Shown one piece after another: positions 8,137 to 60,589 of a DNA stretch of 64,000 nt. The DNA is taken from positions 267,716,001-267,780,000 of the forward strand of contig NW_027362772.1 in NCBI RefSeq assembly GCF_046119375.1, in the 5' to 3' direction. Under the pieces are notes generated by a model. That model searched no databases. It saw only the letters and a program-made list of their open reading frames with translations, and had not been told where the DNA came from. Origin of the DNA: Phyllobates terribilis. Its lineage: Eukaryota. Positions within the stretch are counted from its first letter, which is position 1, and each line of letters starts with the position of its first letter. The position numbers and the translations under genes are program-made.

Positions 8137-8849
8137 TGTCTTGTTCTTTTTGGAGGTGCTGGTCAGTCTATTTGTAGAACAACATTCATGCTGTCAGATC
8201 ATGGATATAGTTAAACTCAATGGAAAAACAGAGTGGTATATTCATTCTAGATGGGCATAGGTCACTTTAGGTCTACTTATTACAAGGCTAGGGTCATTCA
8301 ACCGTATTTTCTCTCATCTGAGAAAATCGGTCTGATTCTGCTAATCACTAGTGTTGAGCCACCCCCGTAGTGTTCGAGTTCGGTTCGTCGAACACCCGTG
8401 TGTTCGCCGAACTGTTCGTCGAACTGTTCGTCGAACACCTTCGAACACCGTTAAAACCAATGGCAGGCAAACAAAAACACATAGAAACACATAGAAAACA
8501 CCTTCAAAGGTGTCCAAAAGCTGACAAACTGCTCAGAAGACATAACTAACACATGGAAAAGTGACAAGTACATATAGTCATGCGAAAATAAAAGAGGTGG
8601 AGGAGTAAAAGGAGGGGGAGACACAGATATAGGCATGTCATGCCCTTCTAAAATCCAAAAAGTGAGAAGCCGACACGGCCAGTCCGCTCCTGCCCGTGCC
8701 ACCTCCGTATCGCCGGGTTTGTGTCAGAGCCGCGGTGAACCCTGATGGCCAGCCCCCCTCTCCCAATACTGGTGCCTGTCCGCTGGTGGGTCGAGCGAGC
8801 CCCCCTGTGGTGGAGGCAGCTCTAAGCTTTTTAATTTAAATTGTCTCTC

Positions 8850-9150
8850 TAATTTGAATGAATACACTTTAAATCCATTTACAAGGATCTATTGGAGGGC
8901 AAGTCTCATGCCAGCAGCCGCGTAATTCCAGCTCCAGTAGTGTCCACTAAAGCTGCTGCAGTTAAAAAGCTTTTATAAGGATCGAGCTCGGCTGTCCACC
9001 GCAAGGCATCCTACTGCCAGTCCCAGCCCCTATGCCTTGGGGTGCCTCCTGATGCTCTTCACTGAGTATCCCGTGGTCCCAAAGCATTTCCTTTGAAAAA
9101 ATGAAGTGTCCAAACTACAGGTGGTGTAGCTTGCTTAACAGCCGGGATAA
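8850..9150 (+). pseudogene. 18S rRNA gene fragment (decayed), cargo of A1
   Basis: ATTGGAGGGCAAGTCT..TGCCAGCAGCCGCG-TAATTCCAGCTCCA...GCTGCAGTTAAAAAGCT...GATGCTCTT..CTGAGT...CTTTGAAAAAAT..AGTGT matches the conserved vertebrate 18S segment around helix 18 and V4. Confidence 0.9.
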
Positions 9151-9227
9151 TCCGCTGACTAGCAGACCCTGCTACTAGGCACAAAGTATTTCCTGGGCTA
9201 GATGCAGTTAAAAATTTGTAATTAGAT

Positions 9228-11051
9228 ACTCTCGTTGGATGCTGAGAAAGCATTCCATAGAGTCTCCTGGCACGCCATAAATGATTCTCTTAAAAAGCTT
9301 GGGGTAGGGCTCTAGGGGACCCTTTTATAGCCAAAATCACGGCCCTGTATCGCAATACGTCACCTAGGCTGAAGATAAATGGAACTGTAGCACCCTGAGG
9401 GCTCGGTTGCTACAGAGGTATTGCACCTCACCCAGAGGTGTGATATCTCACTCTCAGGTAAGGATGTAGTGTGGATCAGGACCCGACACCTGCATGCATT
9501 ACACCACATTGCCGTGGGGCAGGGCGACCAATATGCCCCTGAGATGGGCACGACAGTCCCTGTCCCTGGCTGGAGTGGGGGGAGGGAACACTGAGGAAGG
9601 GGAACCCTGTAGTGCAGGAGCAGGGAGGAAGCAGTTCCTGGGTGCATTGAGAAGGGAGTATAAAAGGTGGGCACCATCTTAGTTCAGTGCAGAGAAGTCT
9701 GAGCAGAAGTGGCAGGTAGCAGTGGCTCTGCATGAGCTCTGCTCCGGAGGCGGGCCTAGTAACAGAGGCCCAGGCCTGGAAGAGGGAGAAGAAAGGAAGA
9801 GGAGCGGAGAAGGCTCCAGGAACGAGGAACGAAGGGATCTCAGGGGTGCGGACGGGCGAGTCGCCACCGCACGCCAGAATCCACCTGCGTGGAGGGGTCA
9901 GGCCAAAGGGGGAGACCGGTCCCCGAAACTAGTGGAGGCAGGAAACGACCCTCAGCTAGAAACAGGAGGCTGTGACATTTTATGTGGCGCAGCCCCTCGC
10001 TACACCCGCTAGGAAGGCACCACATAGGGTCAGGGAAACTGGCGCCAAGTTTACCAAGAGGAGGCCCGAGGCAGCCGGACAGAAGGGTTGGTAAGAAAGG
10101 CCAGACAAAGGACACACAAAGGGGGTCCTGTGAAGCGCTCCAAAGTTATCTGGGAGTTGTCTGAGCCCCTCACCTGGTGAGCACAGTACGACGTGGGCAG
10201 CCGTTACCTGCAGACGTGGTCTGGATAATAAGAACTGTGAGTAAAGGCCCTGGACTGCATCACTGACTCCGTGTCATTACTGCTGCTGCCCTGCACCATC
10301 ACCCCCATCCTCCGCATACACTGCCCTGAGGCTATACTCCTCCCGTGGGGAGTTATGCTACGCTCTGCTGCACCCACAACACCAGCCTCAGCAGTCTGCC
10401 CTGGAGCGGCGGTTCACTCTGACCGCAATCCACGGGTGGCGTAGTCGGACATTTAAACATCAAAACCACATAAATAGTTCCGCCACTGGTTTGACCGCCC
10501 TGAGCCACGGAACCGGGTTGCCGCCACGGAGACTACAACCACCAGCATCCACCAAAAAGGGTCCGGCTCCGGGTGTCCCAAGGCCCAGGGGGCGCGTCAG
10601 AACATTTTCATCACCTTTCACAATCACCAATGGGACAAGGCAGGGATGTTCTCTGTCCCTTCTCTTATACATCCTAGTGACGGAGCACCTGCTCTCATCA
10701 ATTCGCCATAACCCCAATATTAGGTGGATTGAGGTGGGAGGCACCGAGTACAAGTGCTCTCTATTTGCTGATGATGTCCAAGTATATATCACTCAATCAC
10801 ATATATCCATCCATGCTGTTATGGCTGAAATAGATCACTTTGTTACATGGTCAAATTTTAAAATCAATGCAGCGAAGTCTGAGGCCCTCGATGTCTCCCT
10901 CCCCAAATCCATATAGGATTCCATCCAGTCCAACTTTCCCTTTGCCTGGCCCTCACAGGGTATCAAATACTTAGGAATTCCTATTCATAGAGACCTCTCC
11001 CATCTATGTTATCTTAATTTTGGGCCCTTTATTGAACAACTCCATACAGAC
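9228..11051 (+). mobile_element. L1-clade ORF2 reverse-transcriptase fragment split by a solo LTR (cargo of A1)
   Basis: LSLDAEKAFHRVSW...LGDPFIAKITALYRNTSPRLKING | solo LTR | TFSSPFTITNGTRQGC...LFADD...GIKYLGI. The frame is continuous once the LTR and one TSD are removed. Confidence 0.9.
9386..10599 (-). mobile_element. Solo LTR (1214 bp) inside the L1 fragment of A1
   Basis: Minus-strand termini TGACGCGCCCCC...GGGTGCTACA; 4-bp TSD GAAC (9382-9385, 10600-10603). Confidence 0.85.
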
Positions 11052-11121
11052 CACGGTTGGCAAGTTAGAACTGTAAGATTCACTACGTGAACCACTGGTG
11101 TTTTGTGGAAAAGCACATGTA

Positions 11122-12495
11122 CACTGTGTTCCAAATTATTATGCAAAAAGTGTTTAGGAGTGATAAGGGAAGAATTTGTTTGTTTGTCAGTTAAACTCAT
11201 TGATGGTGATGTGTGTCAGGGCTCTTTATATCACTGTAAGCAATTGCAGACACCAGTGCTAATTAGTTTGGCAGGTGTGTCCAATGAAAGGCAAGACTAC
11301 TTAAGAAGGCTCTCTCACATTATTCAGCAGCCTACATTTTCTGCCAAAATGGGAAAGAAAAAGGATGTGTCGGCTGCTGAGAAGCAACAAATTGTGGAGT
11401 GTTTAGGTCAAGGCATGACTACAATCAACATTGTGCGATGATCAGGATGAAGTGTCTTGGCAATCAAGAAGTATGTAGCTGATTCACAGTACACACGTGT
11501 GCGTGCTGATAAGGGCAAATTGAGGACTCTTTCCTACAGGCAATTACGTCAGGTTGAAAGAGCAGCGGCAAAAAAGCCTTGTCATAGCAGCAGACAAGTT
11601 TTTGAAGCTGCTTGTGCCTCCAACGTCCCCCGAACAACAAGATGCAGGGTCCTTCAGAGGTTTGCAGCTGTGCATACGCCATCCTGTCGACCTCCTCTAT
11701 CCACTTCACACAAGCAGAAACGGCTCCAGTGGGCCAAACATTACATGAAGACTGATTTCAAAACTGTTTTGTTCACGGATGAGTGCCGTGCAGCGCTCGA
11801 TGGTCCAGATGGATGGAGTGGAGGATGGCTGGTTGATGGACACCCCACGCAAACACGGCTACAGCGCCAACAAGGAGGAGGTGGAGTAATGTTTTGGGCT
11901 GGAATCATGGGGAGAGAGATTGTCGGCCCCTTTAGGATCCCTGAAGGCGCTAAAGATGAACTCCATAATGTATTTGGATTTTCTCAAACAGCACTTCCTG
12001 CCATGGTTCAAGAAGAAGAACCGTGTATTTCACAGCAAGATCATTTTTCTGCATGATAATGCACCATCTCATGCTGCACATAAAACATCTGCATCTCTGG
12101 CTGATATGGGCATAAAAGGGGACAAACTTATGGTGTGACCCCCATGCTCCCCTGACCTCTACCCCATTCAGAACCTTTGGAGCATCATTAAAAGGAGTGT
12201 CTATGATGGCAGGAGGCAGTTCACATCTAAGCAACAGCTCTGGGAGGGTATTCTGTCCTCATGCAAAACAATTGAAACAGAAACCATCCAAAACCTGACA
12301 AATTCAATGGACGAGAGAGTTCAGAAGCTCCTTTCGAACAAGGGGTCCTATGTGAAAATGTAACATCACCTAGAAAAAAGTTTTGAGTTGAAAACTGTTT
12401 GATTTCAGTTTCTAACAACCTGCTAATGCTTATAATTTCAAAAATGACCATTTTTTTGGTCTTTATTAAAATGAAAAGGTTGATCGAAAAGTTTG
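11122..12495 (+). mobile_element. Tc1-type transposon, frameshifted, right TIR missing (cargo of A1)
   Basis: TA|CACTGTGTTCCAAATTATTATGCA left end. Transposase MGKKKD (11349), LFTDEC, GGGGVMFWAGI, FLHDNAPSH, SPDLYPIQNLW (catalytic E replaced by Q), stop ~12363. Confidence 0.9.
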
Positions 12496-12820
12496 GGGGA
12501 TCTAAGAGTGTGGCAACCCAGTAGCCATGATTACTTCGAATTCTGACAATATGAGGGTCATGCTGCAGGTAGTGCAGCAAGAAGGCACTTATGTGTCTTG
12601 CGCATCTCGGAGCCCCAAAATTATTTTCCGGGCTAGATGCAGCTAAAAATTATTTTGAATTTTAAATCTGGTGGAGCTTATTATAGATGGCCTAATAGGA
12701 TCAGTGCTGCACACTGCTACAAAGCCCAAATTATTTTCCAGTCAAGATACAGATAAACATGATTAGTAATTTGAAAGCTTAAAACGGTTGGTAGGGTGAT
12801 TTTAAACAATCATCAAGCTT

Positions 12821-15800
12821 TTACTCTCCCCAGGATGACACAGGGGTAGAAAAGTCGTTTCGGATCCATGATTTGTTCATCTTTATGAACGTGAGTCTGT
12901 CTACATTATCAGTGGAGAGCCGCGTGCGCTTATCTGTCAGCACACCACCAGCAGCGCTGAACACACGTTCAGACAGAACGCTGGCTGCGGGGCATGACAA
13001 GATCTCCAAGGCGTAAGTGGCTAGCTCCGGCCATTTATCCAGATTGGAAGCCCAAAAAGAGCAAGGGTCCAGTGACACAGTCGTGGCTTCAATGTTTACT
13101 TGGAGATACTCATGTACCATCGTCTCTAGGCGTTGACTATGTGTCAGACTTCTTGTCTCCTGTGGCCTTGCAAAGGATGGGCTAAAAAAGTGGTGAAATG
13201 ATTCCGCAAAATTGATGTTACCACCAGATACTGTGGTTCTGTTACGGTTTGAGTGCTGAACACTTGACGGTCCCACGGTTGGCAAGTTGGAACTGTGAGA
13301 TTCACTACGTGCACCACTGGTATTTTGCGGAAAAGCACATGTAAGATTCTGCAACAGTCTCTGCTGATACTCCTGCATGCGTGCATCCCTTTCTATGGCA
13401 GGAATAATTTCTGCAAATTTACTTTTGTACCGGGGATCTAACAGTGTGGCAACCCAGTAGTCAGGATTATTTCTAATTCTCACAATTCGAGGGTCATGTT
13501 GCAGGTAGTGCAGCAAGAAGGCACTCATGTGTGTTGCGCATCCAGGAGCACCAAGTCCCTGTTGTGTTGGTGGCAAGGTAACAATCATGCTTCCTTCCTC
13601 TGTCCTCTCCCCCCAACCTCGCACAACAGAAATGTGATCAAGGTCTCCCTCATCTGATGAGTCTTCCATCAGTTCGTCCTCCACTTCTTCCTGGGCTCCT
13701 GCACCTTCCTCACTAGTTTGGCTGCTACCATGCGCCCTGGTAAAACCATCTCCCCCACCCTCACATGCCTGCCGCCTTGGTGCTGCCGACCGTCTGGACC
13801 TTGCAGATGTTAGCCCTTCCGCATACAACTCCTCCTCCTCTACTTCCTCCACCTCCTCTTGTGCCACCACCTGACTCCGAATTCTGTTTAACATGTGCTC
13901 CAGCATGTAAATCACCGGAATAGTCATGCTGATAATGGCATCGTCAGCACTAAACATCTTCGTCGCCATTTCAAAACTGTGCAGAAGGGTGCATAGGTCC
14001 CTGATCTGAGACCACTCCTCCAGCGTGATTTGCCCCACCTCTGAATCTCGTTGGCCCAGGCTATACGTCAGATCGTATTGCACCAGGGCTTGTCGGTGCT
14101 GCCACAGTCGCTGCAACATGTGCAGAGTTGAATTCCACCGGGTAGGTACATCGCATTTTAGCCGGTGAAGTGGCAGGCCCAACGACTTATGTAGAGAAGT
14201 AAGTCGCTGAGCTGCGGGATGCGAACGGCGGAAGTGAGCACACAGCGACCGTGCCCTCTTCAGAAGGCCATCTAGTCTGGGATAGTGGGCTAAAAATTGC
14301 TGGACAACCAGGTTCAACACGTGAGCCATACAAGGCAAGTGTGTGACATTGCCCCGGCGAAGGGCCGCACCCAGGTTTGCAGCATTGTCGCACACGGCCT
14401 TCCCTGGTTGCAGGTCCAGTGGAGACAACCATTCATGAAATTGGTTCTCCAGAGCTGACCACAACTCCTCAGCTGTGTGACTCACATTTCCCAGACATTT
14501 CAATGTAAAAACCGCCTGATGACGTTGAGCCCTACTGCCAGCATAGTAAGGAGGTGTGCAGGATCCCTTCTGCGCAGTTAGTTAGCTTGTGGCATGACCA
14601 GACAGGCTTTGGGTGCAGGTGGAAGACCGAGAGGAGGTTGAGGAGGCAGAAGCAGTGGAGGAACTTTGACATAAAGAGGATTGACGCACAACTCGTGGGG
14701 ACGGCAAGACTTGGACAGCAGCCCCTTGTCCTGCTGTCACCATAGTTACCCAGTGCCCAGTCAGCGACATGTAACGCCCCTGTCCATGCCTACTCGTCCA
14801 AGTGTCTGTGGTGAAATGCACCCTGTCACACACAGAGTTTCTCAAAGAAGCGGTGATGTTGTGTGCGACATGCTTGTGGAGCGCAGGCACACCTTTCTTT
14901 GAGAAGTAGTGCCGACTGGGCATCTGGTACTGGGGCACTGCGACGGACATAAGGTCTCGAAAATCCTCTGTGTCCACCAGGCGGAAAGGCAGCATTTCTG
15001 TAGCCAAGAGCTTGCAGATGGTGAAATTCAACCTCTTAGCTTTCTCATGGCTAGGAGGAAATGGTCTTTTACTTGTCCACATCTGAGGGACCGAGGGCTG
15101 GCTATTGTGCTTAGACGGGGTTGATAAGGGTGTCCCCGGCAAACTGCCGGTCTGTGAGGAAGATGCAGGCGGACATGTTAGGTTGCCTTGATCCAAAGGT
15201 GGTGCTATCGATGTCGGACAGCGCTCAACACCAGCTGCTGTTACCACCTCCAAAGAAAATGATGACCTGCCAATCACGCTGGCTGTTGCGGGTAAAGAGG
15301 TGGCAGGTCTGCGCCCCAAAACAGGTGTGACTGCTGTCCCCCCAGTCACAGAGGATGAAGAGGCCGCGGATGCACAAGATATGGCAGACGGTGGTTGGCC
15401 CGGCCGGCTAGGCCGCATTGTAGCACACTGAGCTTCCCACTGCAACTTATGCTTCATGTCCATGTGCCGGTTCATGCATGAAGTACTCAAACTATGTATT
15501 TTTTGGCCTCCACTTAGCTTTTGCTGACAAATGTTACAGATAACACGAGTTGGGTCATCTTTATCGATCTGAAAAAATGCCCAGGCTATGCAAGGCTTAG
15601 CACCCATGCGACCTGAAGAGTCACCACGACTTGTGGTGAGAGGCAGAGTTGTGTTTGAGGATGCAGTTGTTGACGTGCTTCCAGTACTACGTCTCTGTCC
15701 AGGAAGGCGCAACCTGACCTCGTCGTCACTAGCATCTTCCTCCACCTCCTCTGCTGACCTCATCTCTTGGCTGACTGTGGGTTGACAGTAAGTGGGATCT

Positions 15801-16522
15801 CCAACCTCATCATCATCACCCTGTGTGTTATCACACCCGTCGTCCTCAGAGCCAACCTGTTCCTGCCCTGACAAAAAACTAATGTTGTCGCTCCAATCAG
15901 GTATTTGAGTCTTATCATCGTCTTCCTCATTGTCTCCACCAACAGGAGTTACAGTTTGGGAATGAGGGTCTACATTATGGTCAGAACCTTCTGCGTCTGG
16001 TCCTGGATCCGACTCATAAAGATTCTGGGCATCAGTGCAGATCATTTCCTCGTCTGGATTCACAGAAGCGCTGGAGTCGACCTCTGATTCCCAGGCTATA
16101 GTATGAGTAAACAGCTCTGCAGACTCAACCATCTGTTCTACCTCATACTCAGACGGGCAGCTGGAGATTTGGGAGCTGTGAGGAAGCAAGTGCGATTTGG
16201 GTGACACCTTTGATGACTGGAGTATTTGTGATGTTGAAGTTGATGTGGAGGAGAGCCCACTTAAAGGAGCACTTGATATCCGTTGAAGCACCTGCTGTTT
16301 TTGTGCCTCATCTGGAATTTGTAGCGATTGGCGTGGCCGTAAGAAAGGGATCTTATCACATTGTCCGCTAAAAGAAGTAGACATTTTAGTTTGGCTGGAA
16401 GATGGTCTTTCTTCTGCAGATGTTACTGTTGCTTTAACACCTACCCCACGGACACAACCTTTTTTCCCCTTCCCAACACGCCTATTCCCCTTTCCACCAG
16501 CAGCAGGCCTTTTTCCACTCAT
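12821..16522 (-). pseudogene. hAT transposase of A1, 1233 codons with one in-frame stop (14582-14584)
   Basis: BED finger (WAFF..CNIC..MNRHMDMKH), TTDTW, CDNAANL, CMAHVLNL, TRWNST, C-terminal CPAASVLSERVFS. ORFs 14582-16522 and 12821-14503 are in the same frame. Confidence 0.93.
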
Positions 16523-16639
16523 TTTGGTGGTTAACTAATTCACAACTCTGGAGTTGTTTTCACAAAAAAACAATGGATGGTAACCGAGCAGAGCTGAGTG
16601 GCCAAACTGTGGTATTAGGCCAAAACTATTGGCTGGGTT

Positions 16640-17035
16640 AGATGCAGAAAAAAATATATTCAGTTTGCAACCTGATGGAGGTCAGTATAGATGGACTAAT
16701 ACAACAAGTCCCACACACAGCTAGAAGCCCAATATTTTTTCAGAGGTAGATGCAGAAAAAAATATATTCAGTTTGCAACCTGATGGAGGTCAGTATAGAT
16801 GGACTAATACAACAAGTCCCACACACAGCTAGAAGCCCAAATATTTTTTCAGAGGTAGATGCAGAAAAAAATATATTCAGTTTGCAACCTGATGGAGGTC
16901 AGTATAGATGGACTAATACAACAAGTCCCACACACAGCTAGAAGCCCAAATATTTTTTCAGAGGTACTGTAGATGCAGATAAAAATTAGTTTTAATTTGC
17001 AACCTGATGGAGGTCAGTATAGATGGACTAATAGA
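16640..17035 (-). repeat. 108-bp tandem array inside A1 (~3.6 units)
   Basis: GATGCAGA...CAACCTGATGGAGGTCAGTATAGATGGACTAAT unit starts at 16641, 16749, 16858 and 16972. Confidence 0.92.
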
Positions 17036-19037
17036 ATGATGCTATGCCCAAAAGATTTTACTTCACTAGGTGCAGTAAAAAAATTGGTATTCTATACACA
17101 GGTGGTATATCTTGCAGCACAGATAGGCTACTCCACTGACTAACACACTCTGCAATAGGCCAAAAAGGATTAGCTTTGCTAGATTCAGCCAAATGCTGTG
17201 AAAAAAACTTGCACAGCACTGGCACAGACCTGCCTGGCAAAAACTGATAGGAACTGTTGTAACCTAGTCCTGAAAAGGACTCCAATTACAATTAGTCTTT
17301 ACTCCCACAACCTATCTATTTAAGAGCACAGACCTCCCTGATAAAAGTCGTAGGAAATGCTGTAACCTAGTCCTTAAAAGGACTGCAATCACAACTATTC
17401 CCTACTCCCAAGCTATCTGTATATTTGTGCGAAAATTGGCTTGAAATTAACAAGGTATAGCGCACACAGCAACAGCGGTGCCGTCTAACACGCAGCTGCA
17501 GCAGTGAGAAAATGGTGGCGACGGGGAAAATGGCTTGGTCTTATAGGGCAAGGACATGTGACATACACTGCCAATGACACATGCCCTTGCTTGTGTGAAA
17601 AAAAGCACTTCGCTCCGTGTGTGCGCTGCTGATAGGCTGACAGATTGCACCTCCCCACTGCAAATGCGGGAAAGAGAAAAAAAAATGGAGATCTTCATTG
17701 TTCCTGCAGAGATCCATCCCCTGCCCCTCCCCCCACCCCGCTGTACACTCAAACTGCGTATTAACATTAATTTTCATCATTACTGAGAAAAAATCCAGTT
17801 ATGATTTTGGTGCACGAACAGTTATCGAACATAACCTCGAACAGCCGAATTTTTATCAAATTGTTCGTGTTCGCCGAACGGCTCGAACACCACCCAAAAC
17901 AGCTCGAATTTGAGATTGGCGAACAGTTCGAGTAGAACAACGCTCATCTCTACTAATCACACTATGATCAAACTCTGATTGGGGTTTGATCACAGTTTGA
18001 TCATAGTGTACTCCGACTTTCTCAGATGTAGAGAAGATGGAAAAAAATGTCTCCATCTTCTCCATTTTGTCAGTTCTTGTCATGTCAGATCGCACTAGGA
18101 CCAAAAATATGTTTGTCCGCACGAGTCCTAACGCTTTATGGCCTCAGAGTCAGCACAAGCAGCATAATGCAGTAATGAAGTATATTAGGTGGTAGGGTGG
18201 AAGAAAGAAAAGAAGCTCCAGTTGGAGACAAATAAGGCAAGCTACAGACCAAGAAGGGACAATCTAAACCCAAAACTGCTCATGATGATGGAAGCCCATG
18301 ACTTGAACCTTTTCATACTGGCCAGACTATAGGCTTGCCGTTTGATCAGTCTCTCTGGATATGGAGTGCATTGGGAGCTAGAAGAAGGGTGACCAACAGG
18401 CAGGAAGGTTTCCTTTCTAATATATATAACTTTCTGAAAAATTTTGCAATAAGACACATAATTAGCATGCGATTAGCACACTATTATCTCCATATGGTAA
18501 TGAGCCATGATTCATATTGTGCAGACTATGATTAGCACCTTATCTCTCTGTATTAGCAGGTACATTAAGGTGTAGAAGAAGACGGCATAGCTGTTGGCAA
18601 ACATGTGGCTGAATATTAACCCTTCTCTGGCAGTTGGGTTTGCCCTTGCCACAGCTGTTATAGAGTGTGACAATATTATTTAATAGCATATGATTTGTTG
18701 TATATGGTGACAATTTCATTGTAAATGTATTTTTTAGCAACAGCATGGTGGTATTATACAGATACTATGTGGTAATATGTGATCAAGAAGTGGTATTATT
18801 TGGACCATATATATTTCACATATAACTTTATGACCAGTGATGAATTTCCTAAAGGAGAAAATCTAAGCATAGTAAGATTTAATCAATTGAAAAGGTGAGG
18901 AAACTACTCACCTGATGCATTTGTGAAAACAGATTCACAACTCCTGCTTAAAGTATGGATGAATTTGCGAAAGACTGTCGCCGACCTGCTGAAGTGGGAT
19001 TGGACTTTGAGACAAGGAGCATCCCACAGTGTGGATA

Positions 19038-19271: not shown

Positions 19272-20529
19272 CATAATTTTATGACAGTAATTCTTAGAGA
19301 TATAGGGTCAGATTCATCAAAACTTTAAAGCCAGAATTCTGGTAAAAAAGCTTTGTAAAAGTTGCAAAATTTTGGCACAACATAAGGCTGCACTAACATT
19401 TAGTAAATTTTGTCATTCTCACTGCATTTTCGCTTCTGTCCAAAAAAAAGTGGGCAGAGTTGGGGTGGGACTGTTAAGGGAGGGCAATGGCCCTTCACAG
19501 TTGACCAAGTGAGTGTCAAATTATTATGTTGATTGCGCAATCCAACAGAGAACCAGACAGAGACAGTGCTTGCTCTGTATGGGAGGATTCAAAAGAATCT
19601 CTGATCCCATTTATTTTGCTTAGCATTTTATATTATTTTGAGTTTATTAATGTCCAATTATCTACACCCATACTACAGGCTGGAACCAATGTTAGTACAA
19701 TTATTACAGAAATACACATATGGTCATATAATCGTTAGTTCGGTGCATGGTGGAAATGTACAAGGTCAATCCTGGCCTAGACTAGTTAGATAACAGGAGT
19801 GGGGTGTCTGACAAAATGTTCTTGAGATAAAAAGTTAGTGTGGGAAAGTTCCATGGGAAGAGAAAGAAAGAATGTATGTTATGCAAGAAGTGATAATAAC
19901 TAGTGTTGAGCGAACATGCTCGACACTGCTCGGTACTCGCCCGAGCATCACGCTTCTCGGGATGTTCGGCGAGCACCGAGCATTTCCGGGTTACTCGGGC
20001 GGGAGCTCGAGTCTCCGCCCTGCATGTTTGGCGCTCTTTACAGAGCCAATGAACATGCAGGGATTGCCAGCCAGTCACTGTAATGCCGCAGCCATGTTGT
20101 TTGTGGGCATTACAGTGATTGGCTGGCCGCACAGCGTCACCTCGAGTATTTAAAACCGGGCGTCGCCATCTTGGACACATTCGCTCCGGATCAGACAGTG
20201 TAGGGTGCTGATTTAGGGAGAGATATATCCTGCAAAATAGTTAGTGTAGGGTCTGTAAAGGCTGCCAGATCAAACAAACAGTCCTTCTCAGGACTAATAT
20301 CCATCCCAGGTATATCAGGCAGGCAGGCAGGCTGTATAGGAGACGCAGTGGTTATACCAGCAAACGCTGCATTACAGTCCTGTGTGCTGCTCCTGTTGCT
20401 GAAATTGCTGGACCCGGGGGCCAGGAAAAATCCTTTTTTTTTAATCTAAATCCTCTTTTTTTTTTCCTCCTTCACAATGTACAAATACCCATCTTATTAA
20501 CCTTTTGGTGCCCCCCCCAAAAAAAAATG

Positions 20530-35067: not shown

Positions 35068-35069
35068 GC

Positions 35070-49450: not shown

Positions 49451-50922
49451 TCTATTAGTCCATCTATACTGACCTCCATCAGGTTGCAAATTGAAAATAA
49501 TTTTTTTTCTGCATCTAGCTCTGAAAAAATATTGGGCTTCTAGCTGTGTGTGGGACTTGTTCTATTAATCCATCTATACAGACCTCCATCAGGTTGCAAA
49601 CTGAATATATTTTCTTCTGCATCTACCTCTGAAAAAATATTGGGCTTCTAGCTGTGTGTGGGACTTGTTCTATTAATCCATCTATACAGACCTCCATCAG
49701 GTTGCAAACTGAATATATTTTTTTCTGCATCTACCTCTGAAAAAATATTGGGCTTCTAGCTGTGTGTGGGACTTGTTCTATTAATCCATCTATACAGACC
49801 TCCATCAGGTTGCAAACTGAATATATTTTTTTCTGCATCTACCTCTGAAAAAATATTGGGCTTCTAGCTGTGTGTGGGACTTGTTCTATTAATCCATCTA
49901 TACAGACCTCCATCAGGTTGCAAACTGAATATATTTTTTTCTGCATCTACCTCTGAAAAAATATTGGGCTTCTAGCTGTGTGTGGGACTTGTTGTATTAG
50001 TCCATCTATACTGACCTTCATCAGGTTGCAAACTGAATATATTTTTTTCTGCATCTACCTCTGAAAAAATATTGGGCTTCTAGCTGTGTGTGGGACTTGT
50101 TGCATTAGTCCATCTATACTGACCTCCATCAGGTTGCAAACTGAATACATTTTTTTCTGCGTCTACCTCTGAAAAAATATTGGGCTTCTAGCTGTGTGTG
50201 GGACTTGTTCTATTAATCCATCTATACAGACCTCCATCAGGTTGCAAACTGAATATATTTTTTTCTGCATCTACCTCTGAAAAAATATTGGGCTTCTAGC
50301 TGTGTGTGGGACTTGTTCTATTAATCCATCTATACAGACCTCCATCAGGTTGCAAACTGAATATATTTTTTTCTGCATCTACCTCTGAAAAAATATTGGG
50401 CTTCTAGCTGTGTGTGGGACTTGTTCTATTAATCCATCTATACAGACCTCCATCAGGTTGCAAACTGAATATATTTTTTTCTGCATCTACCTCTGAAAAA
50501 ATATTGGGCTTCTAGCTGTGTGTGGGACTTGTTCTATTAATCCATCTATACAGACCTCCATCAGGTTGCAAACTGAATATATTTTTTTCTGCATCTACCT
50601 CTGAAAAAATATTGGGCTTCTAGCAGTGTGTGGGACTTGTTGTATTAGTCCAACTATACTGACCTCCATCAGGTTGCAAACTGAATATATTTTTTTCTGC
50701 ATCTACCTCCGAAAAAATATTGGGCTTCTAGCTGTGTGTGGGACTTGTTGTATTAGTCCATCTATACTGACCTCCATCAGGTTGCAAACTGAATATATTT
50801 TTTTCTGCATCTACCTCTGAAAAAATATTGGGCTTCTAGCTGTGTGTGGGACTTGTTGTATTAGTCCATCTATACAGACCTCCATCAGGTTGCAAATTGA
50901 ATATAATTTTTTTCTGCATCTA
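49451..50922 (+). repeat. 108-bp tandem array inside A2 (~13.6 units)
   Basis: Period 108 (e.g. TCTATACAGA at 49681, 49789 and 50221). Confidence 0.93.
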
Positions 50923-51038
50923 ACCCAGCCAATAGTTTTGGCCTAATACCACAGTTTGGCCACTCAGCTCTGCTCGGTTCCCATCCATTGTTTTTTTGTG
51001 CAAACAACTCCAGAGTTGTGAATTAGTTAACCACCAAA

Positions 51039-54000
51039 ATGAGTGGAAAAAGGCCTGCTGCTGGTGGAAAGGGGACTAGGTGTGTTGGGAAGGGGAAAAA
51101 AGGTTGTGTCCGTGGGGTAGGTGTTAAAGCAACAGTAACATCTGCAGAAGAAAGACCATCTTCCAGCCAAACTAAAATGTCTACTTCTTTTAGCGGACAA
51201 TGTGATAAGATCCCTTTCTTACGGCCACGCCAATCGCTACAAATTCCAGATGAGGCACAAAAACAGCAGGTGCTTCAACGGATATCAAGTGCTCCTTTAA
51301 GTGGGCTCTCCTCCACATCAACTTCAACATCACAAATACTCCAGTCCTCAAAGTTGTCACCCCAATCGCACTTGCTTCCTCACAGCTCCCAAATCTCCAG
51401 CTGCCCGTCTGAGTATGAGGTAGAACAGATGGTTGAGTCTGCAGAGCTGTTTACTCATACTATAGCTTGGGAATCAGAGGTCGACTCCAGCGCTTCTGTG
51501 AATCCAGATGAGGAAATGATCTGCACTGATGCCCAGAATCTTTATGAGTCGGATCCAGGACCAGACGCAGAAGGTTCTGACCATAATGTAGACCCTCATT
51601 CCCAAACTGTAACTCCTGTTGGTGGAGACAATGAGGAAGACGATGATAAGACTCAAATACCTGATTGGAGCGACAACTTTAGTTTTTTGTCAGGGCAGGA
51701 ACAGGTTGGCTCTGAGGACGACGGGTGTGATAACGCACAGGGTGATGATGATGAGGTTGGAGATCCCACTTACTGTCAACCCACAGTCAGCCAAGAGATG
51801 AGGTCAGCAGAGGAGGTGGAGGAAGATGCTAGTGACGACGAGGTCAGGTTGCGCCTTCCTGGACAGAGACGTAGTACTGGAAGCACGTCAACAACTGCAT
51901 CCTCAAACACAACTCTGCCTCTCACCACAAGTCATGGTGGCTCTTCAGGTCGCATGGGTGCTAAGCCTTGCATAGCCTGGGCATTTTTTCAGATCGATAA
52001 AGATGACCCAACTCGTGTTATCTGTAACATTTGTCAGCAAAAGCTAAGTAGAGGCCAAAAAATACATAGTTTGAGTACTTCATGCATGAACCGGCACATG
52101 GACATGAAGCATAAGTTGCAGTGGGAAGCTCAGTGTGCTACAATGCGGCCTAGCCGGCCGGGCCAACCGCCGTCTGCCATATCTTGTGCATCCGCGGCCT
52201 CTTCATCCTCTGTGACTGGGGGGACAGCAGTCACACCTGTTTTGGGGCGCAGACCTGCCACCTCTTTACCCGCAACAGCCAGCGTGATTGGCAGGTCATC
52301 ATTTTCTTTGGAGGTGGTAACACCAGCTGGTGTTGAGCGCTGTCCGACATCGATAGCACCACCTTTGGATCAAGGCAACCTAACATGTCCGCCTACATCT
52401 TCCTCACAGACCGGCAGTTTGCCGGGGACACCCTTATCAACCCCGTCTAAGCACAATAGCCAGCCCTCGGTCCCTCAGATGTGGACAAGTAAAAGACCAT
52501 TTCCTCCTAGCCATGAGAAAGCTAAGAGGTTGAATTTCACCATCTGCAAGCTCTTGGCTACAGAAATGCTGCCTTTCCGCCTGGTGGACACAGAGGATTT
52601 TCGAGACCTTATGTCCGTCGCAGTGCCCCAGTACCAGATGCCCAGTCGGCACTACTTCTCAAAGAAAGGTGTGCCTGCGCTCCACCAGCATGTCGCACAC
52701 AACATCACCGCTTCTTTGAGAAACTCTGTGTGTGACAGGGTGCATTTCACCACAGACACTTGGACGAGTAGGCATGGACAGGGGCGTTACATGTCGCTGA
52801 CTGGGCACTGGGTAACTATGGTGACAGCAGGACAAGGGGCTGCTGTCCAAGTCTTGCCGTCAACACGAGTTGTGCGTCAATCCTCTTTATGTCAAAGTTC
52901 CTCCACTGCTTCTGCCTCCTCAACCTCCTCTCGGTCTTCCACCTGCACCCAAAGCCTGTCTGGTCATGCCACAAGCTTTCTAACTGCGCAGAAGGGATCC
53001 TGCACACCTCCTTACTATGCTGGCAGTAGGGCTCAACGTCATCAGGCGGTTTTTACATTGAAATGTCTGGGAAATGTGAGTCACACAGCTGAGGAGTTGT
53101 GGTCAGCTTTGGAGAACCAATTTCATGAATGGTTGTCTCCACTGGACCTGAAACCAGGGAAGGCCGTGCGCGACAATGCTGCAAACCTGGGTGCGGCCCT
53201 TCGCCGGGGCAATGTCACACACGTGCCTTGTATGGCTCACGTGTTGAACCTGGTTGTCCAGCAATTTTTAGCCCACTATCCCAGACTAGATGGCCTTCTG
53301 AAGATGGCACGGTCGCTGTGTGCTCACTTCCGCCGTTCGCATCCCGCAGCTCAGCGACTTACATCTCTACAGAAGTCTTTGGGCCTGCCACTTCACCGGC
53401 TAAAATGCGATGTGCCTACCCGGTGGAATTCAACTCTGCACATGTTGCAGCGACTGTGGCAGCACCGACAAGCCCTGGTGTAATACGTTCTGACGTATAG
53501 CCTGGGCCAACGAGATCCAGAGGTGGGGCAAATCACGCTGGAGGAGTGGTCTCAGATCAGGGACCTATGCACCCTTCTGCACAGTTTTGAAATGGCGACG
53601 AAGATGTGTAGTGCTGACGATGCCATTATCAGCATGACTATTCCGGTGATTTACATGCTGGAGCACATGTTAAACAGAATTCGGAGTCAGGTGGTGGCAC
53701 AAGAGGAGGTGGAGGAAGTAGAGGAGGAGGAGTTGTATGCGGAAGGGCTAACATCTGCAAGGTCCAGACGGTCGGCAGCACCAAGGCGGCAGGCATGTGA
53801 GGGTGGGGGAGATGGTTTTACCAGGGCGCATGGTAGCAGCCAAACTAGTGAGGAAGGTGCAGGAGCCCAGGAAGAAGTGGAGGACGAACTGATGGAAGAC
53901 TCATCAGATGAGGGAGACCTTGATCACATTTCTGTTGTGCGAGGTTGGGGGGAGAGGACAGAGGAAGGAAGCATGATTGTTACCTCGCCACCAACACAAC

Positions 54001-54740
54001 AGGGACTTGGTGCTCCTGGATGCGCAACACACATGAGTGCCTTCTTGCTGCACTACCTGCAACATGACCCTCGAATTGTGAGAATTAGAAATAATCCTGA
54101 CTACTGGGTTGCCACACTGTTAGATCCCCGGTACAAAAGTAAATTTGCAGAAATTATTCCTGCCATAGAAAGGGATGCACGCATGCAGGAGTATCAGCAG
54201 AGACTGTTGCAGAATCTTACATGTGCTTTTCCACAAAATACCAGTGGTGCACGTAGTGAATCTCACAGTTCCAACTTGCCAACCGTGGGACCGTCAAGTG
54301 TTCAGCACTCAAACCGTAACAGAACCACAGTATCTGCTGGTAACATCAATTTTGCGGAATCATTTCACAACTTTTTTAGCCCATCCTTTGCAAGGCCACA
54401 GGAGACAAGAAGTCTGACACATAGTCAACGCCTAGAGACGATGGTACAGGAGTATCTCCAAGTAAACATTGAAGCCACGACTGTGTCACTGGACCCTTGC
54501 TCTTTTTGGGCTTCCAATCTGGATAAATGGCCGGAGCTAGCCACTTACGCCTTGGAGATCTTGTCATGCCCCGCAGCCAGCGTTCTGTCTGAACGTGTGT
54601 TCAGCGCTGCTGGTGGTGTGCTGACAGATAAGCGCACGCGGCTCTCCACTGATAATGTAGACAGACTCACATTCATAAAGATGAACAAATCATGGATGCG
54701 AAACGACTTTTCTACCCCTGTGTCATTCTGGGGAGAGTAA
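51039..54740 (+). pseudogene. hAT transposase of A2, 1233 codons with one in-frame stop (53481-53483)
   Basis: Same motifs as A1. ORFs 51039-53483 and 53523-54740 are in frame; TAA stands where A1 has CAA. Confidence 0.93.
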
Positions 54741-54790
54741 AAGCTTGATGATTGGTTAAAATCACCCTACCAACCGTTTTAAGCTTTCAA

Positions 54791-55010
54791 ATTACTAATC
54801 ATGTTTATCTGTATCTTGGCTGGAAAATAATTTGGGCTTTGTAGCAGTGTGCAGCACTGATTCTATTAGGCCATCTATAATAAGCTCCACCAGATTTAAA
54901 ATTACTAATCATGTTTATCTGTATCTTGACTGGAAAATAATTTGGGCTTTGTAGCAGTGTGCAGCACTGATCCTATTAGGCCATCTATACTAAAGCTTCA
55001 CCAGATTTAA
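54791..55010 (+). repeat. 110-bp tandem duplication private to A2
   Basis: ATTACTAATCATGTTTATC at 54791 and 54901; single copy in A1 (~12660-12770). Confidence 0.9.
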
Positions 55011-55176
55011 AATTAATAATAATTTTTAGCTGCATCTAGCCCGGAAAATAATTTTGGGGCTCCGAGATGCGCAAGACACATAAGTGCCTTCTTGCTGCAC
55101 TACCTGCAGCATGACCCTCATAATGTCAGAATTCGAAGTAATCATGACTACTGGGTTGCCACACTCTTAGATCCCC

Positions 55177-56550
55177 CAAACTTTTCGATCAACCTTTTCA
55201 TTTTAATAAAGACCAAAAAAATGGTCATTTTTGAAATTATAAGCATTAGCAGGTTGTTAGAAACTGAAATCAAACAGTTTTCAACTCAAAACTTTATTCT
55301 AGGTGATGTTACATTTTCACATAGGACCCCTTGTTCGAAAGGAGCTTCTGAACTCTCTCGTCCATTGAATTTGTCAGGTTTTGGATGGTTTCTGCTTCAA
55401 TTGTTTTGCATGAGGACAGAATACCCTCCCAGAGCTGTTGCTTAGATGTGAACTGCCTCCCGCCATCATAGACACTCCTTTTGATGATGCTCCAAAGGTT
55501 CTGAATGGGGTACAGGTCAGGGGAGCATGGGGGTCACACCATAAGTTTGTCCCCTTTTATGCCCATATCAGCCAGAGATGCAGATGTTTTATGTGCAGCA
55601 TGAGATGGTGCATTATCATGCAGAAAAATGATCTTGCTGTGAAATACACGGTTCTTCTTCTTGAACCATGGCAGGAAGTGCTGTTTGAGGAAATCCACAT
55701 ACATTATGGAGTTCATCTTTAGCGCCTTCAGGGATCCTAAAGGGGCCGACAATCTCTCTCCCCATGATTCCAGCCCAAAACATTACTCCACCTCCTCCTT
55801 GTTGGCGCTGTAGCCGTGTTTGCGTGGGGTGTCCATCAACCAGCCATCTTCCACTCCATCCATCTGGACCATTGAGCGCTGCACGGCACTCATCCGTGAA
55901 CAAAACAGTTTTGAAATCAGTCTTCATGTAATGTTTGGCCCACTGGAGCCGTTTCTGCTTGTGTGAAGTGGATAGAGGAGGTCGACAGGATGGCGTATGC
56001 ACAGCTACAAACCTCTGAAGGACCCTGCATCTTGTTGTTCGGGGGACGTTGGAGGCACAAGCAGCTTCAAAAACTTGTCTGCTGCTATGACAAGGCTTTT
56101 TTGCCGCTGCTCTTTCAACCTGACGTAATTACCTGTAGGAAAGAGTCCTCAATTTGCCCTTATCAGCACGCACACGTGTGTACTGTGAATCAGCTACATA
56201 CTTCTTGATTGCCAAGACACTTCATCCTGATCATCGCACAATGTTGATTGTAGTCATGCCTTGACCTAAACACTCCACAATTTGTTGCTTCTCAGCAGCC
56301 GACACATCCTTTTTCTTTCCCATTTTGGCAGAAAATGTAGGCTGCTTAATAATGTGAGACAGCCTTCTTAAGTAGTCTTGCCTTTCATTGGACACACCTG
56401 CCAAACTAATTAGCACAGGTGTCTGCAATTGCTTACAGTGATATAAAGAGCCCTGACACACATCACCATCAATGAGTTTAACTGACAAACAAACAAATTC
56501 TTCCCTTATCACTCCTAAACACTTTTTGCATAATAATTTGGAACGCAGTG
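55177..56550 (-). mobile_element. Truncated Tc1 (cargo of A2)
   Basis: Reverse complement of 11122-12495 with the same truncation point. Confidence 0.9.
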
Positions 56551-56620
56551 TACATGTGCTTTTCCACAAAACACCAGTGGTTCACGTAGTGAATCTTACA
56601 GTTCTAACTTGCCAACCGTG

Positions 56621-58444
56621 GTCTGTATGGAGTTGTTCAATAAAGGGCCCAAAATTAAGATAACATAGATGGGAGAGGTCTCTATGAATAGGAATTCCTA
56701 AGTATTTGATACCCTGTGAGGGCCAGGCAAAGGGAAAGTTGGACTGGATGGAATCCTATATGGATTTGGGGAGGGAGACATCGAGGGCCTCAGACTTCGC
56801 TGCATTGATTTTAAAATTTGACCATGTAACAAAGTGATCTATTTCAGCCATAACAGCATGGATGGATATATGTGATTTAGTGATATATACTAGGACATCA
56901 TCAGAAAATAGAGAGCACTTGTACTCGGTGCCTCCCACCTCAATCCACCTAATATTGGGGTTATGGCGAATTGATGAGAGCAGGTGCTCCGTCACTAGGA
57001 TGTATAAGAGAGGGGACAGAGGACATCCCTGCCTTGTCCCATTGGTGATTGTGAAAGGTGATGAAAATGTTCTGATGCACCCCCTGGGCCTTGGGACACC
57101 CGTAGCCGGACCCTTTTTGGTGGATGTTGGTGGTTGCAGTCTTCGTGGCGGCGACCCGGTTCCGTGGCTCAGGGTGGTCAAACCAGTGGCGGAACTATTT
57201 ATGTGGTTTTGATGTTTAAATGTCCGACTACGCCACCCGTGGATTGCGGTCAGAGTGAACCGCCGCTGCAGGGCAGACCGCTGAGGCTGGTGTTGTGGGT
57301 GCAGCAGAGCGTAGCATAACTCCCCACGGGAGGAGTATAGCCTCAGGGCAGTGTATGCGGAGGATGGGGGTGATGGTGCAGGACAGCAGCAGTAACGACA
57401 CGGAGTCAGTGATGCAGTCCAGGGCCTTTACTCACAGTTCTTATTATCCAGACCACGTCTGCAGGTAACGGCTGCCCACGTCGTACTGTGCTCACCAGGT
57501 GAGGGGCTCAGACAACTCCCAGATAACTTTGGAGTGCTTCACAGGACCCCCTTTGTGTGTCCTTTGTCTGGCCTTTCTTACCAACCCTTCTGTCCGGCTG
57601 CCTCGAGCCTCCTCTTGGTAAACTTGGCGCCAGTTTCCCTGACCCTATGTGGTGCCTTCCTAGCGGGTGTAGCGAGGGGCTGCGCCACATAAAATGTCAC
57701 AGCCTCCGGTTTCTAGCTGAGGGTCGTTTCCTGCCTCCACTAGTTTCGGGGACCGGTCTCCCCCTTTGGCCTGACCCCTCCACGCAGGTGGATTCTGGCG
57801 TGCGGTGGTGACTCGCCCGTCCGCACCCCTGGGATCCCTTCATTCCTCGTTCCTGGAGCCTTCTCCGCTCCTCTTCCTTCCTTCTCCCTCTTCCAGGCCT
57901 GGGCCTCTGTTACTAGGCCCGCCTCCGGAGCAGAGCTCATGCAGAGCCCCTGCTCCCTGCCACTTCTGCTCAGACTTCTCTGCACTGAACTAAGATGGTG
58001 CCCACCTTTTATACTCCCTTCTCAATGCACCCAGGAACTGCTTCCTCCCTGCTCCTGCACTACAGGGTTCCCCTTCCTCAGTGTTCCCTCCCCCCACTCC
58101 AGCCAGGGACAGGGACTGTCGTGCCCATCTCAGAGGCATATTGGTCGCCCTGCCCCACGGCAATGTGGTGTATTGCATGCAGGTGTCGGGTCCTGATCCA
58201 CACTCCATCCTTACCTGAGAGTGAGATATCACACCTCTGGGTGAGGTGTAAAACCTCTGTAGCAACCGAGCCCTCAGGGTGCTACAGTTCCATTTATCTT
58301 CAGCCTAGGTGACGTATTGTGATACAGGGCCGTGATTTTGGCTATAAAAGGGTCCCCTAGACCCCTACCCCAAGCTTTTTAAGAGAATCATATATGGCGT
58401 GCCAGGAAACTCTATGGAATGCTTTCTCAGCATCCAACGAGAGT
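56621..58444 (-). mobile_element. L1 RT fragment split by a solo LTR at 57073-58286 (TSD GTTC) (cargo of A2)
   Basis: NGTRQGCPLSPLLY, LFSDD; same junctions as in A1. Confidence 0.9.
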
Positions 58445-58521
58445 ATCTAATTACAAATTTTTAACTGCATCTAGCCCAGGAAATACTTTGTGCCTAGTAG
58501 CAGTGTGTGCTAGTCAGCGGA

Positions 58522-58822
58522 TTATCCCGGCTGTTAAGCAAGCTACACCACCTGTAGTTTAGACACTTAATTTTTTGAAAGGAAATGCTTTGGGACCATG
58601 GGATACTCAGTGAAGAGCATCAGGAGGCACCCCAAGGCATAGGGGCTGGGACTGGCAGTAGGATGCCTTGCGGTGGACAGCCGAGCTCGATCCTTATAAA
58701 AGCTTTTTAACTGCAGCAGCTTTAGTGGACGCTACTGGAGCTGGAATTACGCGGCTGCTGGCATGAGACTTGCCCTCCAATAGATCCTTGTAAATGGATT
58801 TAAAGTGTATTCATTCAAATTA
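58522..58822 (-). pseudogene. 18S rRNA gene fragment (cargo of A2)
   Basis: Reverse complement of 8850-9150, e.g. TGGAGCTGGAATTACGCGGCTGCTGGCA at ~58736. Confidence 0.9.
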
Positions 58823-60589
58823 GAGAGACAATTTAAATTAAAAAGCTTAGAGCTGCCTCCACCACAGGGGGGCTCGCTCGACCCACCAGCGGACAGGCAC
58901 CAGTATTGGGAGAGGGGGGCTGGCCATCAGGGTTCACCGCGGCTCTGGCACAACCCGGCGACACGGAGGTGGCACGGGCAGGAGCGGACTGGCCGTGTTG
59001 GCTTCTCACTTTTTGGATTTTAGAAGGGCATGACATGCCTATATCTGTGTCTCCCCCTCCTTTTACTCCTCCACCTCTTTTCTTTTCGCATGACTATATG
59101 TACTTGTCACTTTTCCATGTGTTAGTTATGTCTTCTGAGCAGTTTGTCAGCTTTTGGACACCTTTGAAGGTGTTTTCTATGTGTTTCTATGTGTTTTTGT
59201 TTGCCTGCCATTGGTTTTAACGGTGTTCGAAGGTGTTCGACGAACAGTTCAACGAACAGTTCGGCGAACACACGGGTGTTCGACGAACCGAACCGAACTA
59301 GAACACTACGGGGGTGGCTCAACACTGCTAATAAGTGTCTCAGCCACCACTGGAGACTGAACGAGTGATGGATGGATAGTACATGGATAGATGGATTGTA
59401 ATGTTGTGATAAACTTGCCTGGTTATGTCTGAAGGTCCTTGTATCTTGTTATCACCCTGATGAGTAGAAGATCAGTAGAATAACTATTAAATCTTTCATG
59501 GAAAATCTTGAGTCCAAATTCATGTTTTTTTCAAAGCTGACCATCTTTCGAAGCGCATGTTGGGATATTTGTTGAGCAAAGCGAAAAGGTAATCAAAGAA
59601 ACATAGTTACTGCACATTATCAGTGTCTTAGAACTTTATATAAGAAGTTTGGTTTGATATTTATTATTGCATGGAGAATAATTTATTAAAATTATTGAAG
59701 AACATACATGGACACAACGCTAATACACCAATGAGATAAAGCTCCATTAAAACTTTACTTTTATTTCTTCAATATATAAAACAAGGTATGCAAATAGAAG
59801 CTGCAGATATGTTTTGGGGGTTACGGCTTTTTTACAACTCAATATAATCTCCCTCAACATTTATTCTTATGTGGTGACTGTATAAAGACTTTTGATCTTG
59901 GAGTAAGAACATCTTCAATTCTTTAGAGATATTTAGTCATTTCATTGTTGATCATATGTACGATTAACATTAAAGGTTTTTGCTAACTTATCAGAGAATA
60001 GCATGACGTAGGCAAAGAGACCCTGATTCAGACAATGTATCACTTAGTTTAGTGGGTGCAGCAGTTCCCACACATTCAGAGGTCTTAGATACAGCCTGAG
60101 AAAGCTAAGAAAGCTAGTCCCGCCCACACCAGGCTCTGTATGTACATAGTCTATTGAAAGTTAGCTACTTATCACAGGAGAGGGTGGAGTCGGACTAGCA
60201 AGAATATGCCAGGTAGTCTAAGCAATGATAATTTCCTTGTGATAAAACCTTCACTGTAAGTAAACAATAGCACAAAGTTTGATAAGTGACACGACACATT
60301 AAGTCCAGTGTTTTAACCCCTACCTCATGCTGTCCTCAGATTGCATAGGAAAAACCTGCTGACAGATTCCCTTTAAGAGAAATATCTATTTTCTACACCT
60401 GTCCCGGATCTGGGCTCTGCTCTCTTCACCCCAGTTCACTAAACTCTCCACATCGGGCTTTGCAAGTATCCCGGCGTGCTCCCATGTGGTCTTCTACCTA
60501 GGCCTATACATGACCTTCCAAGGCACACACCTATGTCTTGATATTAAAACTTTTAGTTTGTCTGTGCATGACAACCTGTATGTGGTGTC

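Follow-up and report, generated by a model that had tools for sequence, protein, structure and literature searches.

How does a DNA transposon come to carry the remains of several other mobile elements, and do these remains travel with it? The question is raised by a stretch of Phyllobates terribilis DNA of 64,000 nucleotides (assembly GCF_046119375.1, contig NW_027362772.1, positions 267,716,001 to 267,780,000), here called the window. It contains two complete copies and part of a third of a transposon that we call family A. The element is about 11 kb long. Between the stop of its transposase gene and its 3' end lie about 4 kb of foreign DNA, made up of pieces of ribosomal DNA (rDNA), an L1 element, a solo long terminal repeat (LTR) and a Tc1-like element. 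Over a third of family A consists of dead passengers.

The reading that we favour, with a probability of roughly 0.8, is that family A is an Ac-type hAT of about 11 kb at more than 37,000 sites, which would have gained broken foreign DNA stepwise and carries it as a predicted neutral passenger.

Copies in the window and across the genome

Copy A1 occupies 8349-17952 (9604 bp), with its transposase on the minus strand, and belongs to the full-cargo subfamily S3 described below. It is flanked by the target-site duplication (TSD) CTAATCAC at 8341-8348 and 17953-17960, and its terminal inverted repeats (TIRs) are imperfect and 11 bp long (TAGTGTTGAGC / TAGAGATGAGC), such short TIRs being a hAT feature. 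Copy A2, at 48686-59327 (10642 bp) on the plus strand, is inverted relative to A1, carries the same cargo and has the TSD CTAATAAG. When the window is compared with itself, the homology of A1 and A2 ends exactly at their termini. Together with the two exact 8-bp TSDs, this bears out a sequence-only reading of the window, which took A1 and A2 for separate transposition products.

Aligned over 9451 columns, the two copies show 135 substitutions (1.43%), with no concentration in either cargo or transposase. Both copies carry a single premature stop, but not at the same site (14582-14584 in A1, 53481-53483 in A2). A2 is longer by 1038 bp, as had been stated, but the proposed split of 1080 + 110 - 152 gives way in the alignment to 1075 (array) + 111 + 5 - 1 - 152. 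A third copy with full cargo, A3, starts at 60791 on the plus strand; its 5' part fills the window up to 64000, and its end is about 9.75 kb further on. Adjoining assembly stretches show that A3 is 97% identical to A1, has a TSD with one mismatch (CAGGAGAC/CAAGAGAC) and a broken frame.

The assembly is 10.57 Gb in size. The next four genome-wide counts are exact 25-mer matches, each with a reversed-pattern control of 0. The junction between L1 and a transposase fragment has 39,358 matches and the filled LTR junction 37,421; the 3' end has 64,707 and the 5' end 50,160. Of the best 40 BLAST matches of 8600-9450, all 40 span the whole query at 99%, and they are spread over 10 large contigs. Copies are dispersed over both strands with distinct flanks. 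The cargo junctions are therefore by no means confined to this locus, and the proposal that the cargo travels with the hAT holds genome-wide.

For a closer look, 30 copies were sampled: 10 came from the best 40 BLAST matches (nine contigs plus one more), and 20 were taken at intervals of five from the first 100 pattern matches. Both ends were found within 16 kb in 22 of the 30, with lengths of 7.8-14.3 kb. Among these 22, 16 have an exact TSD and 2 a TSD with one mismatch.

Copy number can also be approached by mark-recapture. Of 82 LTR matches listed for the opening 31 Mb of one contig, 69 pair with a junction match, which leads to 47-51 thousand copies, a figure that comes from a single region with some LTR-less copies mixed in. 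Overall, we estimate 40-50 thousand copies. At about 10.8 kb each, and if copies are full length, this amounts to an estimated 0.40-0.54 Gb, or 3.8-5.1% of the assembly.

The transposase gene (12821-16522, minus strand) encodes 1233 amino acids when open, with a zf-BED and a Dimer_Tnp_hAT domain (PF02892 and PF05699, both above the Pfam cut-off). It matches the Hermes transposase at E=3e-19, in an alignment that spans the second Asp, CxxH, RW and Glu motifs. We take its TTDTW motif to be the first catalytic Asp. The nearest database proteins are 'ZBED4/6-like' entries, 43-49% identical at best and all anuran where named. The criteria for the Ac family quoted in PMC8961557 include the TSD consensus nTnnnnAn. 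In family A, T stands at position 2 in 17 of 20 TSDs and A at position 7 in 18 of 20. Judged by this bias and the similarity to Hermes, family A is an Ac-type hAT.

An open frame of 1227-1233 amino acids is present in 10 of the 30 fetched copies, and in 5 of the 20 from the pattern sample, which were not picked for likeness to A1. A further three of eight full-cargo copies, fetched through their 3' ends, have an open frame of 1226 amino acids. Although A1 and A2 carry one stop each, the earlier description of the element as near-autonomous is an understatement: as far as its frames can tell, family A is autonomous. One RNA run (X21), from a sample with uncertain host content, yielded 1 read in 12.7 million. 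Five copies (L076, L081, L082, L085 and L086) make up a young branch of S3 whose transposase has lost 21 bp in frame (1226 amino acids) and whose terminal branches are very short. This is possibly the most recently active sub-lineage.

Copies often adjoin or nest in other family copies (L011, L019, L025, L031, L057, L119, L145, L147 and A2/A3), perhaps beyond what a genome share of 4-5% would give; local hopping or a target preference is possible. Three sequencing runs under other organism labels contain the whole element at 99%, at low depth and in short contigs, and also older variants and the empty-site joint. This fits trace DNA or the shallow sampling of a many-copy genome, and we claim neither horizontal transfer nor presence in other species.

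The cargo and the likely order of its loading

All positions that follow are those of A1. The native 3' terminal region (8349-8662, minus strand), with its TIR and short palindromic repeats, is common to all subfamilies. Next come two rDNA pieces on the plus strand, both with a parental counterpart elsewhere. The piece at 8666-8827 is 78% identical to a full-18S locus, and from its position upstream of the 18S 5' end it is presumably part of the 5' external transcribed spacer (ETS). The 18S rRNA fragment at 8845-9114 is 84% identical to a full-length 18S locus (L096), and Rfam model RF01960 matches at 8834-8937 with 62.9 bits. At 9115-9229 there is a single leftover unit of an array of about 112 bp that belongs to the element itself (74% to 17098-17188), and this array is still tandem in the older S1 copies. 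The 18S piece is therefore not joined directly to L1, as had been supposed; it stops at 9114 and this native unit intervenes.

The L1 piece is an ORF2 reverse transcriptase (RT) fragment at 9230-11050 on the plus strand, split by the solo LTR into 9230-9385 and 10600-11050. In the LTR-less copy L088 the frame is open across the LTR site and matches human L1 ORF2p at E=5e-23. The LTR itself (9386-10599, plus strand, 1214 bp) has TG...CA ends and a 4-bp TSD, GAAC; S2 copies show the empty site with a single GAAC.

The Tc1-like element (11120-12483, plus strand) lies between two fragments of the family's own transposase, both on the minus strand. The first (11051-11121, 71 bp, 93% to 13273-13343) ends in the TA that is the Tc1 target. 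The left end of Tc1 begins at this TA, with its left TIR present. About 200 bp are missing, including the right TIR, and the frame is broken. After a 12-bp filler (12484-12495, minus strand), which resembles the adjacent 12 bases, the second fragment follows (12496-12618, 89% to 13432-13554). This places the end of Tc1 at 12483 and not near 12495, as first read. The two transposase fragments are collinear with 88 bp missing between them, and they diverge by 7-11% from the current frame. Array-like units of 110 bp, variable in number among copies, occupy 12615-12779. On the other side of the gene, the 5' subterminal array (16639-17033, units of 108-110 bp) is the chief source of length variation, with 3.6 units in A1, 13.6 in A2 and more than 20 in A3.

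The identities first given to the cargo thus find support in the Rfam hit, the L1 ORF2p match, the TSD of the LTR and the comparison with Tc1-like elements. Every piece is truncated or broken. It had been said that the hAT spreads pieces of three classes of transposable element (TE) plus rDNA, and this is right in the passive sense only. In orientation, the transposase gene runs opposite to every foreign piece (8666-12483, and also L101:960-1800) and in the same direction as the own-transposase fragments.

Where do the pieces come from? The left end of Tc1 with a flank other than that of the cargo has 684 matches; ten were fetched, of which six are free elements and four mutated cargo. The six free copies are 93-95% identical to the cargo and run on into a right end, which the cargo Tc1 does not. 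Two of the six have a 337-amino-acid frame, whereas 26 cargo copies have no open reading frame (ORF) above 262 amino acids. The start of the LTR with another flank has 379 matches, and ten fetched loci are half mutated cargo and half free relatives. These patterns detect close matches only, and the wider donor families are larger. The carried Tc1 and LTR pieces far outnumber the free close matches.

Relatives of the cargo LTR have also re-inserted in many family copies (L039:5446-10000, L013, L031, L077, L079, L087, L103 and L138). The one in L039 is a two-LTR element of 4.8 kb with a 745-codon frame that contains a cold-shock domain and has no RT match.

The order of loading can be read from three subfamilies. 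S1, the older one, has the same ends and the rDNA pieces, plus an extra 815 bp of RT-like and further ETS-like DNA; it is without L1, LTR and Tc1. Its junction has 2,875 matches, which is a minimum. An 18S 37-mer has 779 matches, and 19 of the first 20 lie in S1 copies. Among eight S1 copies, six have an exact TSD and one a TSD with one mismatch. In S2 the 815 bp are gone, the block of L1, own-transposase fragments and Tc1 is present, and the LTR site is empty. The empty-site junction has at least 3,972 matches, and 15 of 15 fetched loci are within hAT copies. S3 is the S2 cargo plus the solo LTR, and intact transposase frames are present.

The RT-like fragment of S1 (L101:960-1560), lost before S2, may be DIRS-like, to judge by its motifs. 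The extra S1 segment has no Pfam RT match; in the Atlas, eukaryotic clusters without a name score 0.95 and RVT_1 scores 0.83, which is a lead only.

A transposase tree of 56 rows (window 14000-15700, midpoint root, rows covering less than 90% left out) has an S1 clade (100/99), an S2+S3 clade (100/99) and a star-like S3 burst of 35 rows. Four LTR-bearing copies branch before this burst. Divergence from the commonest base per column is 2.38% in S1 (n=8), 1.61% in S2 (n=4) and 0.40% in S3 (n=22). The direction from S1 to S3 follows from this order and from the empty LTR site, as the tree has no outgroup. The likely sequence is rDNA, then the L1/Tc1 block, then the solo LTR, then the burst, in at least three steps. 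With substitution rates of 1-3e-9 per site per year (as quoted in PMC12822217) or 2.5e-9 (as quoted in PMC11152451), a rough conversion puts the S3 burst at about 1.3-4 million years ago.

Later events have altered the cargo again. Among 17 3'-end matches without a junction match, eight are full-cargo elements, four are another composite derivative, two share a deletion, two are older interrupted copies and one is without the LTR. The composite (L074, L077, L079 and L084) is non-coding; its 3' end is identical up to 8819, where inverted S1-like transposase pieces begin, and at 4 of 17 sampled ends it probably has thousands of copies. The deletion shared by L080 and L086, from recombination between a cargo own-transposase fragment and the real gene, removes the whole of Tc1 and the C-terminus of the transposase. 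Both are young copies with a 5' end, and Tc1 is thus dispensable for movement.

Within one genome a DNA transposon should evolve neutrally, given that its enzyme works in trans. By a simple count, with no codon model, pN/pS is 0.83 within S3 and 0.90 within S1. Between the commonest codons of S1 and S3, dN/dS is 0.46 (69 silent and 103 replacement changes; Fisher p=0.0015 against S3 polymorphisms), and each subfamily step gives 0.43-0.47. On these counts, the transposase shows the pattern of purifying selection between subfamilies, which suggests either that the enzyme has a cis advantage or that functional copies were the founders time and again. From S1 to S3 the 18S piece has diverged by 7.0%, a value close to the 8.0% of transposase dS. 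Among S3 copies the LTR and rDNA pieces vary by 0.9-1.3%, versus 0.4% for the transposase. The cargo looks neutral: broken and decaying.

How the cargo was gained and whether it matters

The LTR and Tc1 have integration marks of their own, the GAAC duplication and the TA, and are for that reason nested insertions and not Pack captures; both would have entered hAT sequence through their own enzymes. The rDNA, L1 and own-transposase fragments may have been joined during the repair of excision gaps, by template switching or end-joining. A repair-associated route is proposed for animal Pack-TIRs in PMC8277862. The Pack-type capture first suggested for the cargo is accordingly a possibility for the rDNA and L1 pieces, which lack such marks, and does not apply to the other two. 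The cargo as a whole thus combines nested insertion with, in all likelihood, repair-type capture, and is no case of pure Pack capture.

The transposase presumably requires just two ends with subterminal repeats, so anything between them would be carried along. Copies would be gained through cut-and-paste plus gap repair. The cargo lineage would have won the last burst owing to its transposase or its ends, or by chance, and the cargo would not be the reason.

Several observations count against the neutral, stepwise account. Four of the 22 two-ended copies have no TSD, and 8 of the 30 have no complete pair of ends within 16 kb; these eight are mostly rearranged or split by later insertions. The free LTR relatives are merely 68-90% alike. 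The empty-site pattern gave no L1 donor, all 15 fetched matches being hAT-borne. No rDNA-free ancestor appeared among 20 3'-end loci, where exact 25-mers miss older ones, which leaves the first capture without an empty site for comparison. The step from S1 to S2 also alters the 5' end by 8.7% and changes the array type, and L021, which looks recombinant, combines a 3' part like that of S3 with a gene and 5' end of older type. Recombination between subfamilies is therefore likely, and S2 may be a recombinant of two lineages, not a plain descendant. Finally, copy number is about tenfold higher in the LTR-bearing subfamily, for which a model of neutral cargo itself offers no explanation.

It may be, at somewhat less than even odds, that the L1/Tc1 block entered whole, by recombination with an older, decayed hAT that held nested insertions. 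The true captures would then be the rDNA and the RT-like piece only. Tc1 does sit between collinear own-transposase fragments, with their 7-11% divergence and 88 missing bp; the block has array units at either edge, and the change in the 5' end falls in this same step. None of the fetched loci, however, has a full transposase with a complete Tc1 at this TA, and the templated-looking filler at 12484-12495 points to at least one end-joining. This scenario is compatible with the favoured one and differs from it in route alone.

The tenfold excess of S3 could instead mean that the cargo is partly functional, with the solo LTR, a Tc1 promoter or the ETS/18S pieces changing transcription or silencing and so enabling the burst. 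There are 37,421 LTR-bearing matches against 3,972 LTR-less and 2,875 S1 junction matches, a TATAAAA box stands in the LTR near 9659, and the ETS-like/18S, L1, LTR, Tc1 and S1 RT-like pieces share their antisense orientation. We nevertheless consider this unlikely. Exact 25-mers undercount the older subfamilies, and just 4 of 39 rows represent LTR-bearing copies that split off ahead of the burst. Between S2 and S3, moreover, 24 amino-acid and 17 silent changes became fixed and the 5' end was altered by 2.25%; either could explain the burst. The greater variation of the LTR and rDNA pieces within S3 also speaks against a function.

A bolder version has only slightly better prospects, and we doubt it too: that a single autonomous lineage was kept under purifying selection for several million years while foreign DNA snowballed, and that the last burst was due to the captured LTR changing transcription or silencing. 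If true, purifying selection inside one genome would imply a transposase that favours its own copy, an LTR-driven tenfold burst would have added some 0.4-0.5 Gb, and much young-looking Tc1, L1, LTR and 18S signal in giant frog genomes would be passenger DNA.

Local segmental duplication, a dispersed satellite-like unit or a misassembly deserves hardly any credence. Three copies do lie inside 65 kb, several loci (L011, L019, L025, L031 and L057) adjoin or nest, and L092 and L093 are 99.9% identical across 3 kb. Against this, matches are scattered over both strands by the tens of thousands, flanks and TSDs differ from copy to copy, and homology ends at the TIRs. In addition, 0.93-0.97 of the words of the cargo stretch recur in runs of two studies under the best-matching organism label, and one sample from these may be the source. 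All three readings were rejected on the TSD sample, in which 18 of 22 two-ended copies have one.

If copies are full length, the passenger share of family A comes to about 0.15-0.2 Gb. Here a DNA transposon enlarges a genome directly and in a way that can be dated. Recent growth in the group is credited mainly to Ty3 retrotransposons in PMC12822217. There is also a warning for annotation: tens of thousands of young-looking Tc1, L1, LTR and 18S fragments reflect hAT movement and not activity of those families. The dominant form consists of full-length 11-kb copies rather than short derivatives. Given this and the selection on the transposase, cis-preference and cargo tolerance become testable in a natural vertebrate hAT with thousands of intact copies.

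Neighbouring elements and known systems

The window also contains a second, only distantly related hAT at 19901-29858 (9958 bp), with 65-70% DNA identity to family A. It has the TSD ATAATAAC, the TIR TAGTGTTGAGCG and a broken transposase at about 21943-25350, flanked by arrays of 149 and 133 bp. An LTR-like stretch lies inside it at 26288-27315, and pieces of this hAT recur at 82-95% in at least ten fetched loci. At 30904-33058 (minus strand) there is a broken retrovirus-like pol, two frames of which match RVT_1, RNase H and the C-terminal part of an MLV-type integrase. A SCAN-domain frame lies at 39885-40367 and an RT-like fragment at 7630-8193, immediately outside the 3' end of A1, both on the minus strand.

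Family A shares much with the Ac-family hATs Hermes, hobo, Ac and Tol2: 8-bp nTnnnnAn TSDs, short TIRs, a BED finger, a dimerisation domain and Hermes-like motifs. It differs in its length of about 11 kb, where PMC8961557 gives 2.5-5 kb for hATs, and in its single frame of 1233 amino acids, the long arrays near both ends and the 4 kb of foreign sequence that its dominant subfamily has fixed. That hATs are abundant in poison-frog genomes is reported elsewhere (3.91% in PMC11152451), and up to 1.1 Gb of hATs is quoted in PMC12822217.

Like Pack-TIRs and Pack-MULEs, family A multiplies foreign DNA between TIRs by transposition, with distinct TSDs. Capture had been described as best known from non-autonomous plant elements, but capture by animal TIR elements is already in print in PMC8277862, including a frog hAT, Pack-hAT-N8_XT of Xenopus tropicalis. 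In that survey, multicopy animal Pack-TIRs are rare, with four cases in its reference genomes; frog examples given there have 3-5 copies, and one frog hAT example has three transpositions. The cargo described there comes from host genes, whereas that of family A is other TEs plus rDNA, partly by nested insertion. Pack-MULEs, according to PMC6431247, are mobilised in trans and mostly 1-2 kb; the family A carrier keeps its transposase and has more than 37,000 copies. The same review has natural eukaryotic DNA TEs seemingly kept lean, with Pack-MULEs of at most 7 kb. As to what defines a Pack element, non-TE host sequence with a parental copy elsewhere is found between the TIRs for the rDNA pieces only. 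The LTR and Tc1 came by their own integration, with L1 and rDNA as possible captures, and the carrier encodes a full transposase where a Pack-MULE is non-autonomous.

Pokey of Daphnia, a piggyBac-type element, is similar in that it encodes a transposase and holds rDNA-derived sequence like that of the intergenic spacer (IGS) in a non-coding region (PMC3575242). Pokey targets rDNA, and the IGS repeats lie upstream of its gene. Family A is a dispersed hAT, with ETS-like and 18S pieces downstream and the remains of other TEs.

Ricksha and the fungal Starships are further cases in which a mobile element transports pieces or copies of other elements. Ricksha contains an ERV-L/LTR piece, is non-autonomous and ancient. 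It is a human element, which PMC5753468 lists simply as MuDR. TEs that hitchhike on fungal Starships are reported in PMC13004909. Starships are giant tyrosine-recombinase elements with passengers that are still active, while those of family A are dead.

Neither family A nor such a scale turned up in full-text searches of the literature; repeat libraries in supplements, Dfam and Repbase may already contain parts of it. The surprise lies in how far family A has spread and how legible its history is: a hAT of 11 kb, autonomous as judged by its frames, whose copies with dead passengers dominate a burst of tens of thousands.

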